This document shows positions 30,001 to 39,000 of a stretch of 64,000 nucleotides of DNA, piece by piece. A program made the position numbers. Every line of letters begins with the position of its first letter. Within the stretch, counting starts at the first letter, position 1. Source of the DNA: an uncultured Methanosarcinales archaeon (GTDB taxonomy: Archaea; Nanobdellota; Nanobdellia; Woesearchaeales; GW2011-AR9); contig CAZRZP010000002.1 in assembly GCA_964604645.1 (NCBI GenBank), positions 141,739-205,738 on the forward strand, written 5' to 3'.

Positions 30001-33000
30001 AATAACCATTACTTTGAGGTTTTTCATGGAGTTAATGATGTTCTGAATTTGAGAAAAAGTATATTTCTCTTTTATTTTTTTGATGTATTTTTCTTTTTCC
30101 ATACTATCTCGACTTTTGATTTCTTACACGGTTGTGTCTTTTAAATATAATGTAACTGTATTATATCAAAAATATGTTCAATCATTTTTATTTATTATCA
30201 TGATTCAATATTTGCCGCTCTGTTTGAAAAAAAATAATTGTTGATTTTTTCCCAATTTTGTAAAACTTGAACGTCGCTTATTTGTTTATTTTCACCACTC
30301 GAATTGAAGAGAATTTTTTTGACAGAAGTGGGAAAAGACGATGCGTTAAACACTTCTTCTAAATCATCAATAAAATGTGTACATTGCAGAATGTTGATGT
30401 GTTTATTTTTTTCGTCTAAAGTTGATCCAAAAAACACCTGTTCTTTAGATAATTTATTAGTGAAGATGTTTTTTTCCATCCACAGCAGCGCTGCTTCTCG
30501 TAAATTAGTGCCGCCCTGAAGTAAATTAGAATAGATTGTCTTATGGCTTATTACATAAATTGTAATGTTATTATCATGACATTTCCGAAGAAATTGATTA
30601 AATCCTGCAAAAATTTTTGCTTCTTGAATTCTAGGCCCATAAATCTGTGCTTGAATTTCTTGCCAGAAAATCTCACCTCCAGGAATAGTTCTGATATGGT
30701 CTCTAATCTTTTTCTTGTTTTTAGGAAAACCTTCGGGTATGAGTTTTTTCTCTAAGGCTATCAGGTGAATTAAATCATCATAACCAATAATGGTATTATC
30801 AAAATCAATCCCAATAATTAGTTGCATCGTTGTATATTTGTATGTTTTTTTTTAAAATTTGTTAACTTACTCTTTATTTGTTCTTGGTCATATTCTTTTC
30901 TCTTCCATAACTGTTATAAAGAGAATATTTGGCTATTATCTTGGATGTGGTGACCATTTTTGTGCACTTGGGTTCAATTATTTTTTCAGCATAATACCTC
31001 GCACAAAAAGTTTGTGGCAATGAAAGCAGCTATTTTAGTTAAGCAAAGAGAACCTCTTATTGTAGGTGATGTGAAATTACCTACAGATTTAGAATATGGG
31101 CAGGTATTTGTTAAAGTTGTTTATAGTGGAATATGTGGCAGTCAATTGGGTGAAATTGATGGTATTAAAGGAGAAGATGCCTACCTGCCGCATTTACTTG
31201 GTCATGAGGGGAGTGGAATTGTTGAGAAAATAGGTAAAGGTGTAACTACAGTTAAAGTTGGAGATCATGTTGTATTACATTGGAAACCAGGTAAAGGGGT
31301 AGAAGCAGCAACACCTCAATATATTTGGAATGGCAATCCAGTTAATGCTGGAAGAATAACTACTTTTAATGAATATGCCGTTGTCTCAGAAAATAGAGTA
31401 ACAGCAATTCCTACAGGTATTGACTTGAAAACAGCACCGTTATTTGGTTGCGCAATTCCGACCGCTTTTGGTGTAATTCATAATGATGCTAATCTTAAAG
31501 TTGGTGAATCTATTGTGGTGTTTGGTTGTGGCGGTGTAGGAATAGCTATTATACTTGCAGCTTCTTTGTCTTCAGCTTACCCAATTATTGCTGTAGATAT
31601 CAATGATTCTAAATTGGAACATGCAAAGAAATTTGGTGCCACCCATTTGATCAATTCTTCTAAAATGGGTGTTGATGTAGCAAGAGAAATTAATTCAATA
31701 TTACCTCAAGGGGGAGATGTTGTTGTAGATAATACAGGTATTACTTCTGTTAGAGAACAGGCGTATGAATTAACCAGTAATAAAGGTAGAACGATTTTTG
31801 TTGGAGTTCCTAAACTTGGTGAGAAAATTAGTATTGATTCTTTTCCATTACATTTTACTAAACGAATCACTGGTTCACATGGTGGAGATGCCAAACCAGA
31901 TTATGATATACCTAGGCTGATTCGATTACAAAATTATGGAGCTTTTAGTTTAGAAGAAATGATCTCTCATACTTATTCTTTAGATAAAATAAACGAGGCA
32001 ATTGCAATGGTACGAAGCGGATCGGCAATTCGTTGTGTAATTAAGATGGAAAATGTGGGGCAAACTTATAATGAACATATGTGAAATCTGCGGGGGAGAA
32101 GTACAAAAAAAGTTAGATTTCGGTCCTCAGCCGATATGCAACCGTTTTCTAAAAAATGTTGAGGAAAAAGAGTTTACGCACCCTTTAAGTATCGGTTCTT
32201 GTTCAAACTGTGGTTTGGTTCAACTAACAGAATATCCTCCGGCGACAGAGATGCAATCTCCTTATAGTTGGGTTCATTACATCGAACCTGAAAAGCATTT
32301 AGATGAAATTGCTGAAAAAATATCTGTTCTTTTAAAAGATAATCCTAATGCAAGAATATGTGGTGTAAGTTATAAAGATGATTCTCTTTTAGAGAGACTT
32401 CAGAAAAAAGGCTTTCAGGTGTATAGGTTACAACCACAGGATTTAGGTTTGAATGAATCTCAAACTGGAATAGAATTGGTCCAGAAAGCTTTCAATCTGG
32501 AACAGGCACGGCATATTGAATTTTTACATGGAAAATTTGATATTGTCATCGCGCGGCACATTTTGGAGCATACGCACCATTCCCTTGAATTTTTTAAAGC
32601 AATAAAGAATCTCACAAAAATTGATGGTTTAGCGTTATTTGAAGTTCCGGATAATACTAGGAATTTTGTTAATTTGGATTATTCTTGTATTTGGGAAGAA
32701 CATCTATTGTACTTTACTCCAGAAACTTTACAACAAGGTTTAATTGCACAGAATTTTAAGTTACATTCATTCTATGATTTTCCATATACCTTAGAAAATT
32801 GTTTAGTTACTTTAGTAAAACCCCATCATGAATCTTCAGAACAAAAGATTGACCTTTCAGAGACAATTAATTCGGCAAATCTTTTTTTTGATAGTTTTGA
32901 TGAAAGAAAAAAACAAATACAAAGTAACTTGTCTCTTCTCAATGAGCGGGGAAATATTGTTGTATTTGGAGCAGGCCATACTGCTAGTTTACTTATCAAT

Positions 33001-36000: not shown

Positions 36001-39000
36001 AATTTATTTTGCCATTGCCCTCACCAACTATACTACCATGACTATGAAAGCCGAAGTTTCTTACCCTACATTAATCTCAAAAATATCGGTGATGCTTGGA
36101 CAGGAAATCTTGTCAACGGAAGAAATTAGTGGTGGTTTAAATAGTAAAATATTTAGGATTAATGCTGATAAGAGTTATGTAGCAAAGTTATATTTTAATC
36201 GAAACGAAGGAAGAAGTTTGCAAGCAGAGTTTTCAGCTTTACGATTTTTGTGGGATTGTGGAGTGCGTTGTGTACCTGAGCCTATTTATTTAGATGAAGA
36301 ATTTAATTTAGCTATTTATGAATTTATTGAGGGAGAGAAGATAAAAGAGATTACAATCTCTGACATGCAGGCGGCAATCAATTTTCTTTCTAATTTACAA
36401 ATAATCTCCAAAAAAGAAGGTAGTTTGTCTTTGTTACCTGCGTCTTCAGCTTGTTTCTCTTTGCAGGATGTTGTTAACATAATTAACAGAAGGTTGGATA
36501 AATTAACAAAGGTTAAATCTCCTAATTTACAAGCATTTTTAATCAATGAATTCAAACCTACTTATGATTCCTTATTGTCAAAATATAGTACACTTTTGAA
36601 CCCTGGTGGTTCTTCAAGTTTCCAACCCCTTCCACAACATGAACGCACATTAAGTCCGTCAGATTTTGGTTTTCATAATGCTCTAAGAAAGAAGGATGGA
36701 ACGGTCGTTTTTCTTGATTTTGAGTATTTTGGGTGGGATGATCCAGCAAAAATGGTTGCTGATTTTCTTCATCATCCAGGCATGCGATTAGATGACAATC
36801 TTAAATTACTTTTTGTAAATAGAATGCTCTCGGTGTTCAACAAATCTACGAATATTGCAGATAATAATGTTGCAGGAAATAATGGCATTAATAAACATGG
36901 GTTGCCATTAGATATAGATTTTACGAAAAGATTGGAGATAATCTTTCCTTTTATTGGTCTAATTTGGTGTTTGATAATATTGAATGAATTTAATTCAGAA
37001 GACTTTAATCGTAGAATGTTCGCTAATTATTCTCCATTGGAAGATCAGGAAAGCATATTAAATAAACAACTAAAGAAATCAAGAGATTTACTTTTGATGA
37101 TTCCTGAGCGTACAACTAAATTAACTTCATTTTTTGAGAATTTGGCTTTTAGAGAAAGTTCTAAGTCTTTTGGAAACAGTACGGAGAATAAAAAAGACTT
37201 ATTTTATGAAGCGAAAAAGTTGAGGCATTCAATAATCAAAACTGTTGAACATGGAGGGAGAGGTCATATTCCTTCAGCTTTATCTCTTGTTGAAATATTG
37301 GTTGTTTTGTACCATGAAGTTCTGCAGTATAAATCAAACGATCCTAGATGGAAATTTAGAGATAGATTTATTTTAAGTAAAGGGCATGGTTGTTTAGCTT
37401 TATACGGGATTCTTGCTGACAGAGGTTTTTTTCCTAAAGATGAATTACTTGGCTTTTGTAAATATAATAGTAGATTAGGTGGTCACCCAGAAGATAAAGT
37501 TCCTGGGGTAGAAGTTTCAACTGGTAGTTTAGGACATGGTTTGTCGATAGGCGTAGGTTTTTGTCTTAATGCTTTATATGAAAAAGAAGAACATCGTACG
37601 TTTGTAGTTATTGGTGATGGAGAATCAAATGAGGGATCAATTTGGGAGGCGGCTATGTGCGCTTCTAAACATAAATTAGATAATTTAGTGGTAATGGTAG
37701 ATTATAATAAACATCAGTCAAGTGGACCAACATCAGAGATATTGGAATTAGAACCATTTGCAGACAAATGGAGAAGTTTTGGTTTTGCAGTTATGGAAGT
37801 TGATGGACATAATATTAAAGATTTACAAAACGTTTTTTCATCACTGCCATTTGAATCGGGTAAGCCAAATGTAATCATTTGTCATACTATCAAAGGTAAG
37901 GGTATTCCTTTCATTGAAAATAATTTAACTTGGCATCATAAAAGTAAACTCAAACCTGAAGAAATAAAATCTTTGTATGGGGCACTCGAGAGTACAGATT
38001 CAGAGGTATTCAAATGAGAAAAACTGCACTTAATATGGTGTGTGAATTAGCACAAATAAATAAAGACATTTTTTTTATTGGGTCTGATTTAAGTCCTGAC
38101 ATTTTAACAAAATTCAAAGAAGCAATGCCTCGCCGTTCATTTATGGAAGGAATAAGTGAGGCTAATGTTGTAGGGATGGCCGCTGGTTTAGCAATGGAAG
38201 GGAAAATTCCTTATGTTAATACTATAGCAACTTTTTTGACGAGAAGGTCTTTTGAACAAATTGTAATTGATCTTTGTTTACATAATGTCAAAGTGAGACT
38301 GATAGGTAATGGAGGAGGATTAGTGTATGCTCCTTTAGGACCAACCCATCAAGCAATTGATGATATTGCTATTTTAAGGGCAATTCCTAATATGACAATT
38401 GTCTGTCCTGCTGATGCGGATGAAATGCGTAGGATTATGCCGTTAACTGTTGATGTTCCTGGTCCAGTTTATATTCGTCTTGCAAAAGGGTATGATCCAA
38501 TAGTTAGTTCTCCAGAATTTCCAGTACAGATTGGTAAGGCAATTCATATGAAAAATGGCAACGATACGCTTTTAGTGACTACCGGAATTTGTTTGAAACT
38601 GGCGTTGGAGGCTGCGGAAGAGTTGAAGAAGGAAGGATTAGATGTGGGTATATTACATTATCATACAGTAAAACCATTTGATGCTGAACAGTTAATTACT
38701 TGTGCAGGTAAAGTTCCTTTGGTGATTTCAATAGAGGAACATAATATAATTGGTGGTTTAGGAAGTGCAGTGGCAGAAATATTAGCTGAATCAAATCTTA
38801 ATGTGCAGTTTAAAAGAATTGGTATTCCAGACAAGTTTGCTGATAATTATGGTTCACAGAATGAACTTATGCATGGTTTTTCCATCACTTCTGATAGGAT
38901 AAAACAAATAATAAATGAAAAGCTTACATTAAGAAATTCAAACTGATGATTCTAACATTTTTGAGAAAAATTCTTTTATTTTTACGACAACTTGATTAGC

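Follow-up and report, generated by a model that had tools for sequence, protein, structure and literature searches.

An altered split transketolase beside a heptose-type pathway points to an undescribed route to unusual sugars in a DPANN archaeon

Why should a sugar operon in an archaeal surface-glycan island carry its own transketolase (TK)? This question is raised by a 64,000-nucleotide stretch of contig CAZRZP010000002.1 (positions 141,739 to 205,738, forward strand; hereafter the window) from assembly GCA_964604645.1, an uncultured archaeon assigned to the Woesearchaeales in the GTDB lineage. Positions 31020-38946 hold five co-directional, translationally coupled genes, as judged from open reading frame (ORF) calls and from the junctions read in the sequence. 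A first-pass annotation had described them as a coupled operon for a branched or higher-carbon sugar, with two TylCIII-like C-methyltransferases and a TK that was either dedicated to that sugar or supplied sedoheptulose-7-phosphate to a heptose pathway nearby.

All five genes lie on the forward strand. They encode an alcohol dehydrogenase (ADH; 31020-32084), a methyltransferase-like protein fused to a WbuC-type cupin (MT1; 32053-33879, with an alternative start at 32071), a short-chain dehydrogenase/reductase (SDR) fused to a C-methyltransferase (33876-36041), a fusion (36038-38017) of an APH-fold kinase (~36059-37153) and the N-terminal, thiamine diphosphate (ThDP)-binding part of a TK (TK_N; ~37214-37984), and the pyrimidine-binding/C-terminal TK subunit (TK_C; 38014-38946). 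For the ADH we used the ATG start chosen by the gene caller; the mechanical ORF begins at a TTG at 30960. Read directly, the sequence has ATGA overlaps at three junctions (33876, 36038 and 38014), and at the fourth the ADH stop codon (TGA, 32082-32084) lies inside the MT1 gene, an overlap of 14 nt or 32 nt for MT1 starts at 32071 and 32053, respectively. The coupled operon therefore stands as described, and an independent gene caller run on the source scaffold, 402 kb of metagenomic sequence (ENA ERZ23498905), returned the identical five genes. The gene order is also kept, at 42-74% amino-acid identity, in a Nanoarchaeia metagenome-assembled genome (locus L004); because the order recurs there, we consider the genes real and conserved. 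Pfam matched ADH_N (5e-16) and ADH_zinc_N (2e-22) to the ADH, Methyltransf_13 (the zinc ribbon), Methyltransf_23 and Methyltransf_14 to both methyltransferase-like genes, and adh_short_C2 (6e-34), APH (1e-7), Transketolase_N (1e-44) and Transket_pyr with Transketolase_C to the remaining domains. With the NCBIfam models added, every domain named in the first-pass annotation was recovered, including the zinc ribbon in both methyltransferase-like genes.

The closest sequences to the histidyl-tRNA synthetase encoded in the window come from Nanoarchaeota and Woesearchaeota; the host is a DPANN archaeon. An AglB/STT3 gene lies near the operon, which is part of an N-glycan or surface-glycan island of this organism.

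Substrate pocket of the split transketolase

Both TK parts match the split TK of Carboxydothermus hydrogenoformans (PDB 6YAK), with E values of 4e-75 for the N-terminal part and 1.6e-59 for the C-terminal part. Residues are numbered as in E. coli TktA, and the window protein was aligned both to TktA and to 6YAK chain C. The TktA sequence used passed eleven residue-number checks and agrees with the 6YAK alignment. The window TK has the landmarks of the superfamily, namely the PP, Pyr and C domains, the ThDP motif (GDG...N), E411, and H26, H261 and H473. In this protein and 72-76 relatives, which together we call TK*, residues H26, H66, H100, H261, the Asp of the GDG motif, N185, E411, H473, R358 and D381 are all kept.

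The substrate pocket is another matter. In TKs, D469 binds the C2 hydroxyl of the acceptor, and R358, S385, H461 and R520 bind the substrate phosphate; engineers have mutated these same positions to admit non-phosphorylated or non-hydroxylated aldehydes. Of this canonical EC 2.2.1.1 pocket (R358, S385, H461, R520 and D469), TK* keeps only R358. The replacements H461G, D469L and R520K are invariant among aligned relatives (72/72), and S385 is replaced by Gly in 65 of the 72 and by Asp in the window protein. TK* therefore shares with canonical TKs, including 6YAK, the fold, the split architecture, the ThDP motif, the cofactor Glu and the catalytic His, but differs from them in H461G, D469L, R520K and S385G/D, and in being tied to glycan genes rather than to pentose-phosphate or aromatic pathways. 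Among other split TKs, 6YAK retains His, Asp and Arg at positions 461, 469 and 520, as does a second TK pair in a plasmid glycan locus of Solidesulfovibrio carbinolicus (pDCAR1; L084, 4965-6733), and a TK pair from a different glycan locus (L036, 1104-2845) has K/G/A/R at S385/H461/D469/R520.

We searched 1.84 billion cluster representatives with TK_C and compared the best 150. The G/L/K(R) triplet dominated approximately the top 28, and the canonical H/D/R triplet first appeared at about rank 61, below many further non-canonical combinations (GAK, GEK, GNK, YAR and others). Among lower-ranked representatives the canonical S/H/D/H/R pattern was recovered in the same alignment frame. Given so many non-canonical triplets, TK* would be one of many specialised split-TK subfamilies. 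Split or TK-like enzymes have been recruited elsewhere for two-carbon chemistry outside the pentose-phosphate pathway: QncN/QncL transfer a C2 unit to lipoyl or acyl carrier protein (ACP), the steroid desmolase DesAB works on a ketol borne by a tertiary carbon, and AniP is a further case. Unlike TK*, these enzymes have lipoyl, ACP or steroid partners, with no kinase/HAD pair or nucleotide-sugar context.

A database search yielded approximately 50 full-length relatives of the kinase-TK_N fusion. Separately, a group of TK_N domains 47-50% identical to that of the window (P0063-P0102) is fused to biotin/lipoyl and E3-binding domains; presumably these are C2-to-lipoyl transferases resembling QncN, for which the TK_N clade was recruited independently.

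The core cassette and its genomic distribution

Scanning one genome per species with a profile of the kinase domain, we confirmed at least 579 loci in species-representative genomes from many bacterial phyla and from DPANN archaea. We scored 80 of these with the window proteins, and the counts that follow come from the 52 flanked by 8 kb or more on each side. The APH-fold kinase and a HAD-like phosphatase, HAD*, are present in all 52, TK_N and TK_C in 51, a heptose-like gene of any kind in 48 (PfkB in 45, SIS in 30), and a GalE-like extended SDR, Epi2, in 45. The remaining operon genes are far less constant: ADH is found in 23 loci, a C-methyltransferase of any type in 18, the cupin in 14, an MT1-type protein in 8 and the SDR in 6; DegT aminotransferases occur in 16. 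These counts indicate that the evolutionary unit comprises HAD*, the kinase, the TK and the heptose-type pathway, and that individual lineages have added the ADH, C-methyltransferases, cupin and SDR. The conserved core is thus HAD, kinase, TK, heptose-like genes and GalE-like SDR, and the five-gene operon, although real as a coupled gene set, does not hold up as an evolutionary unit, since four of its components are accessories found in 12-44% of loci. The functional unit reaches beyond 31020-38946 and adds HAD* (30198-30827, minus strand), a PfkB-SIS fusion (28444-30102, minus strand), a nucleotidyltransferase-GmhB fusion (21588-22649, plus strand) and Epi2 (42367-43347, minus strand).

The common order in bacteria is a nucleotidyltransferase-PfkB fusion, SIS, Epi2, HAD*, kinase, TK_N and TK_C, often followed by a small class-I methyltransferase, ADH and an RmlD-like reductase. 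Kinase and TK_N are mostly separate ORFs in relatives, the fusion in the window being one variant. HAD*, which the first-pass annotation had missed, is a protein of 209 amino acids with DxDxT (IGIDFDNT), SHKT and FIDD motifs; no Pfam model matches it. In relatives, the ORF just upstream of the kinase-TK gene is a homologue of HAD* (37% identity, E 1e-47). Three database proteins carry HAD* fused to the N-terminus of kinase-TK_N, and others have it joined to the kinase only. In the window it is transcribed divergently from the ADH gene, and the AT-rich intergenic region between them (30828-31019) is presumed to be a shared promoter region.

The kinase keeps the catalytic D-x-x-x-x-N and Mg-binding D-F-E motifs of the APH/choline-kinase fold. 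A profile of the kinase domain had no significant match among PDB sequences. A fold search with a structure model of a HAD-kinase fusion homologue (P0094; 42% identical to the window kinase-TK_N and 45% to the window HAD*) placed it among APH, ChoK and NahK kinases, and the fold named no substrate. Kinase and HAD* look like small-molecule enzymes.

The heptose-type genes resemble those of the ADP-D-glycero-D-manno-heptose pathway in that SIS, PfkB, cytidylyltransferase-like and HAD-IIIA domains are all present. The PfkB kinase (HldE domain I-like) is fused to the GmhA-like SIS isomerase, and the HldE domain II-like nucleotidyltransferase to a GmhB-like HAD-IIIA phosphatase (TIGR01656/PRK08942 on residues 176-344), whereas bacterial cassette loci join the nucleotidyltransferase to PfkB and E. 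coli HldE has the order PfkB-nucleotidyltransferase. Each domain matches a heptose model best, yet scores under the equivalog cut-off: 105 against 209 bits for GmhA (TIGR00441), 127 against 345 for HldE domain I (TIGR02198), 112 against 181.5 for HldE domain II (TIGR02199) and 59 against 178 for GmhB. In the SIS domain, Glu65 of GmhA is replaced by Asp, as judged against the E. coli GmhA sequence. Across cassette loci the sole conserved nucleotidyltransferase is the one fused to PfkB, and GmhB occurs in only nine loci, which usually leaves HAD* as the single phosphatase present. We also considered HAD* as the plain GmhB of the heptose pathway; this is contradicted by the GmhB fused to the nucleotidyltransferase in the window and by the HAD-kinase fusions. 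Epi2, assigned by Pfam and NCBIfam, has STSQYG and YAKYK motifs and no Glu base; its homologues in the 45 loci are 41-56% identical and in bacteria lie directly upstream of HAD*.

The cassette is associated with glycan genes in all 52 loci. A cultured carrier is S. carbinolicus DSM 3852, in which it lies on plasmid pDCAR1 directly after pseB-pseC; pseF, a NeuB-family gene, a second cytidylyltransferase, PfkB/SIS and the second TK pair described above belong to this locus too. Other carriers include cyanobacteria (Microcoleus, and a plasmid of Crocosphaera watsonii) and many proteobacteria. Clusters of antisense ORFs seemed conserved near the cassette, with a same-strand count of 0; these are probably ORF-calling artefacts of high-GC genomes and were ignored. 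A full-text literature search found no paper describing the cassette, its only relevant results being a review of ThDP enzymes (PMC12247030) and the papers on octulose and lincosamides cited below, and there is no curated family for it.

This distribution bears on a plain-supply account of the TK, in which the gene is just an additional or the only copy, and its enzyme turns pentose phosphates into sedoheptulose-7-phosphate to feed the heptose pathway alongside. The co-occurrence with GmhA/HldE-like genes (48/52) is very strong, the host resembles DPANN archaea, whose central metabolism is generally reduced, and there is no second TK within the 64-kb window. Nonetheless, the residues with which canonical TKs hold the acceptor C2 hydroxyl and the phosphate are invariantly replaced, and we consider simple supply unlikely because of the H461G/D469L/R520K signature. 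Cyanobacteria need a canonical TK for the Calvin cycle; these and the many proteobacterial carriers should therefore already have one, and on the plasmid pDCAR1 the cassette has another TK pair as its neighbour. Simple supply would also leave the kinase and HAD partners without a role. Taken together, the evidence makes this explanation highly improbable. The main suggestion of the first-pass annotation, that of a dedicated TK, fares better. No aromatic-amino-acid genes are among the 32 most frequent neighbour families of TK* loci, relatives are flanked by HAD, kinase and heptose-type genes, and the pocket is invariantly altered, all of which supports TK* as a predicted specialised enzyme rather than a housekeeping one. 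What survives of the supply idea is a related one, that TK* makes a non-standard ketose phosphate for the GmhA-like isomerase.

Candidate chemistry of the core cassette

From gene content, fusions, synteny and residue signatures, which are direct observations, we infer the chemical steps and the identity of the product. The reading that we favour, tentatively and at somewhat less than even odds, is that TK* makes a non-standard ketose phosphate that enters a heptose-like activation pathway, much as in the octose route of the lincosamides, to yield a nucleotide sugar that is then tailored. TK*, the APH-fold kinase and the HAD phosphatase would provide three activities on one small sugar metabolite. 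TK*, in which the residues for the donor C1 hydroxyl and ThDP are intact, would remove a two-carbon ketol from a ketose donor and join it to a non-canonical aldehyde, not to ribose-5-phosphate or another ordinary D-2-hydroxy aldose phosphate. The resulting ketose phosphate would be handled like sedoheptulose-7-phosphate in ADP-heptose synthesis or octulose-8-phosphate in lincosamide synthesis: the GmhA-like SIS protein would isomerise it, PfkB would phosphorylate C1, HAD* or GmhB would strip the terminal phosphate, and the HldE domain II-like transferase would form the nucleotide sugar. The APH-fold kinase might either provide a phosphorylated acceptor or add a second phosphate. Tailoring candidates are the GalE-like SDR, a 4,6-dehydratase-like SDR, a double aminotransferase, the 3-C-methyltransferase with its fused ketoreductase, MT1 with its cupin, and the medium-chain dehydrogenase. 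This scheme employs every core gene, and it agrees with the conservation of just one nucleotidyltransferase and with the heptose linkage of nearly all loci.

The lincosamide pathway is the closest precedent. The transaldolase LmbR forms octulose-8-phosphate, from which LmbN, LmbP, LmbK and LmbO produce GDP-octose (PMC5854111, PMC12945683); a plant transketolase has also been described that forms octulose-8-phosphate from the 6-phosphates of glucose and fructose (PMC5854111). As in the cassette, a dedicated C-C bond-forming enzyme of central-metabolism type lies beside a GmhA-like isomerase, a sugar kinase, a HAD phosphatase and a nucleotidyltransferase, with SDRs and aminotransferases acting later (PMC5854111, PMC12945683). 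The two differ in that the lincosamide enzyme is a transaldolase moving three carbons and the cassette enzyme a ThDP-dependent TK moving two, in that the lincosamide kinase is of the GHMP type and that of the cassette a PfkB, accompanied by the additional APH-fold kinase, and in that the former belongs to an actinomycete antibiotic cluster whereas the latter, known from genes alone, is spread over the glycan loci of DPANN archaea and of many other phyla.

Several observations weigh against a ketose phosphate entering heptose-like activation. HAD* would be redundant in the window, because a GmhB-like phosphatase is present there, fused to the nucleotidyltransferase. The scheme assigns no definite role to the APH-fold kinase, and the members of the cassette are known from their genes alone. 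Two of the four phosphate ligands (H461 and S385) are lost, so that a non-phosphorylated or nucleotide-bearing substrate could equally be accommodated. Heptose-like genes are missing within 10 kb in four of the 52 loci, the P0006 locus lacks them too, and the GmhA/HldE-like genes that are present score under their equivalog cut-offs. Finally, the TK genes of the window are translationally coupled to enzymes of NDP-keto-sugar metabolism (NDP, nucleoside diphosphate), which fits the branching reaction considered in the next section.

The kinase and HAD* also permit a second reading, modelled on sialic-acid synthesis, in which ManNAc kinase, Neu5Ac-9-phosphate synthase and the HAD phosphatase NANP act in turn. 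Here the kinase would phosphorylate a free amino- or deoxy-aldose, TK* would add two carbons at the C1 aldehyde to give a 2-ketose phosphate, HAD* would dephosphorylate it, and the octulose or nonulose would be nucleotide-activated. Such a route accounts for the trio of kinase, C-C enzyme and HAD phosphatase and for their fusions, and the kinase fold is near that of the anomeric/aminosugar kinase NahK. D469L would suit an acceptor with an N-acetylamino group or hydrogen at C2 instead of a hydroxyl, DegT pairs flank the cassette in 16 of the 52 loci, and the S. carbinolicus plasmid places the cassette beside pseB/pseC, pseF, a NeuB-family gene and a second cytidylyltransferase. However, neither a second nucleotidyltransferase nor a PseG/NeuC-type NDP-sugar hydrolase is conserved with the cassette, a NUDIX protein encoded in the window is absent from the other loci, and the heptose-like genes (48/52) would be reduced to bystanders. 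We regard extension of a free sugar as improbable.

Two further proposals were dropped. Cleavage of the side chain of a 6-keto-heptose by the TK was rejected by reasoning only, the ring oxygen blocking the chemistry; synthesis of a phosphonate or of a glyceroyl- or glycolyl-acyl donor was rejected since no ACP, lipoyl or acyltransferase partner is conserved.

Accessory genes, the surrounding island and significance

The two methyltransferase-like genes of the operon proved to be unequal. The SDR-fused protein consists of the SDR (~33924-34646), a linker, a zinc ribbon (34827-35012), a S-adenosylmethionine (SAM) domain (35067-35480) and a C-terminal domain (35547-36020). Its methyltransferase part matches the mycarose 3-C-methyltransferase (4RV9) with an E value of 1.2e-89 and TcaB9 with 4.6e-69, and it has all the features of the TylC3/TcaB9 type: a four-Cys zinc ribbon, SAM motif I (VDIGSNDGS), the catalytic YHEH motif (YHEHLSY) and a Methyltransf_14 domain. 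It thus resembles TylC3, TcaB9 and KijD1 in zinc ribbon, D-I-G-S-N-D-G SAM domain, YHEH motif and C-terminal domain, but differs in being fused to a classical SDR and in being accompanied by a second, cupin-fused paralogue that lacks SAM motif I. The SDR is a classical ketoreductase with GGTKGMG and YHVAK motifs. The linker between SDR and methyltransferase (34670-34805) is Lys/Glu-rich and of low complexity (KKELEEKEEKKEVVEKNIKSEE...).

MT1 comprises a zinc ribbon (~32080-32253), a methyltransferase-like core (32305-33168) and the WbuC cupin (33394-33789), as delimited with Pfam and NCBIfam. It matches TcaB9 with only 72 bits; E-I-G-C-N-D-G of motif I aligns with G-V-S-Y-K-D-D and LGFEPS with YRLQPQ, and the beta2 acidic residue is not conserved in the clade. 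In nine of ten clade members motif I is replaced by [ST][FY]KD[DE][ST]; the clade keeps the zinc ribbon, RHxxEH and WEEH. Methyltransferase activity of MT1 is, on this evidence, doubtful. Hence, of the two TylCIII-like C-methyltransferases proposed in the first-pass annotation, the SDR-fused one is borne out by its match to 4RV9 and its intact motifs, and the cupin-fused one is not, having lost SAM motif I. An MT1-type protein is always accompanied by the WbuC cupin, which in the window scores 141 bits on TIGR04366 against a cut-off of 42 and has a metal motif (HRHKDKSESFHIIEG...YH). A literature search on WbuC returned only papers on mcr-9 plasmids, which contain no biochemistry of the protein. 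The ADH is a medium-chain dehydrogenase with the catalytic zinc ligands (GICGS, GHEG and FGCA) and no Cys in the region of the structural-zinc lobe; its matches to class-III-ADH-like NCBIfam models fall far under the equivalog cut-offs. Homologues 47-71% identical occur in 23 of the 52 loci, usually downstream of the TK C-subunit gene.

Coupling of the TK genes to a canonical NDP-hexose C-methyltransferase and a ketoreductase raises a third reading, essentially the main idea of the first-pass annotation. With a ketose phosphate or hydroxypyruvate as donor, TK* would attach a hydroxyacetyl (glycolaldehyde) unit at the carbonyl of a heptose or hexose in its NDP-4-keto (or 3-keto) form, giving a sugar with a two-carbon branch and a tertiary alcohol, and ADH or SDR would reduce the ketone of the side chain. 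Next to the operon are genes for a 4,6-dehydratase-like SDR and for aminotransferases, which draw on the same keto intermediates; D469L, H461G and S385G would widen the pocket for a bulky acceptor without an alpha-hydroxyl, and related clades include TK_N domains in fusion with DegT, epimerase, FkbM and sugar-transferase domains. In S. carbinolicus the position directly after pseB-pseC is likewise compatible with branching. There is also a precedent by proposal: split-gene TKs have been proposed for this step in miharamycin and amipurimycin synthesis, and 13 more are predicted in Streptomyces clusters (PMC12247030). Those TKs share with the cassette the N and C subunits, the sugar-tailoring context and the proposed transfer of a C2 ketol to a sugar carbonyl; no kinase/HAD partner or heptose linkage is reported for them, the comparison with the G/L/K clade is by description only, and their function is a proposal, the reaction never having been demonstrated in vitro (PMC12247030). 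Branching would, moreover, give no role to the kinase and HAD phosphatase, which are strictly co-inherited (52/52, with fusions), and the C-methyltransferase, cupin and SDR genes are confined to a minority of loci. TK* also keeps R358 and has Lys at 520, as expected for an anionic (phosphate) handle. We therefore consider branching of an NDP-keto-sugar unlikely, though not remote. A C-branched or two-carbon-extended sugar remains the most sensible class of product. Assignment of the operon to glycan-sugar synthesis is well founded, and each chemical step towards the sugar is conjectural.

Two genes adjoining the operon, both on the minus strand, encode further tailoring candidates for the ketose-phosphate route that we favour. 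The 4,6-dehydratase-like SDR (Epi1; 41319-42323) scores 204 bits on TIGR01181 against a cut-off of 365 and has STPEVYG and YAASK motifs. The gene at 38938-41310 encodes a tandem double DegT-type aminotransferase, matched by Pfam DegT in two stretches, which reaches 515 bits on the PseC equivalog (cut-off 423.5), the best stretch being in its N-terminal half. Its 790 amino acids hold two complete aminotransferases joined by a poly-Asn low-complexity linker, and the gene overlaps that of the TK C-subunit convergently by 9 nt.

Elsewhere in the island, NodU/CmcH-type carbamoyltransferases are encoded at 16336-18096 and 25464-27209 (both plus strand), and a B12-binding radical SAM enzyme of the KedN5-like C-methyltransferase family, scoring well under the cut-off, at 22897-24939 (minus strand); these three genes suggest carbamoylated and further C-methylated sugars. 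A second sugar-modification operon (636-6254, plus strand) encodes an AMP-binding enzyme, a DegT aminotransferase, a GFO/IDH/MocA oxidoreductase, a GT2 protein and a radical SAM-SPASM protein, with a TylF-like O-methyltransferase beside it (6277-6798, minus strand). Unexpected in a reduced, DPANN-type metabolism are an ATP-citrate-lyase-like gene pair (48975-51953, minus strand), with citrate-binding/ATP-grasp and CoA-ligase/citrate-synthase domains, and a gene for CofD, 2-phospho-L-lactate transferase (62397-63368, plus strand).

The cassette combines known kinds of component, TK-superfamily carboligases and heptose- or octose-type nucleotide-sugar pathways, and its position next to a heptose-type pathway suggests a route, so far undescribed, to an unusual branched or higher-carbon sugar. 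A broader proposal, possible although we rate it on the unlikely side, is that the cassette is an unrecognised and widespread route to C8, C9 or other non-standard nucleotide sugars, in which a TK rather than a phosphoenolpyruvate-dependent synthase or a transaldolase builds the skeleton, and one of many split-TK subfamilies with rebuilt acceptor pockets that serve surface-glycan diversification in bacteria and DPANN archaea. If so, nucleotide-sugar synthesis would involve an undescribed ThDP-dependent step common to at least 579 species-level genomes, from DPANN archaea and many bacterial phyla, and their surface sugars would include some not yet seen chemically. The TK* family would be a natural counterpart of the engineered D469, H461 and R520 variants that admit non-phosphorylated, non-hydroxylated acceptors, and hence a ready source of carboligases. 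Annotation pipelines label parts of the cassette "transketolase", "aminoglycoside phosphotransferase family protein" or "hypothetical protein"; in S. carbinolicus, PGAP uses the latter two together with "transketolase C-terminal domain-containing protein". With such labels, metabolic reconstructions of reduced genomes may wrongly credit them with a pentose-phosphate transketolase.

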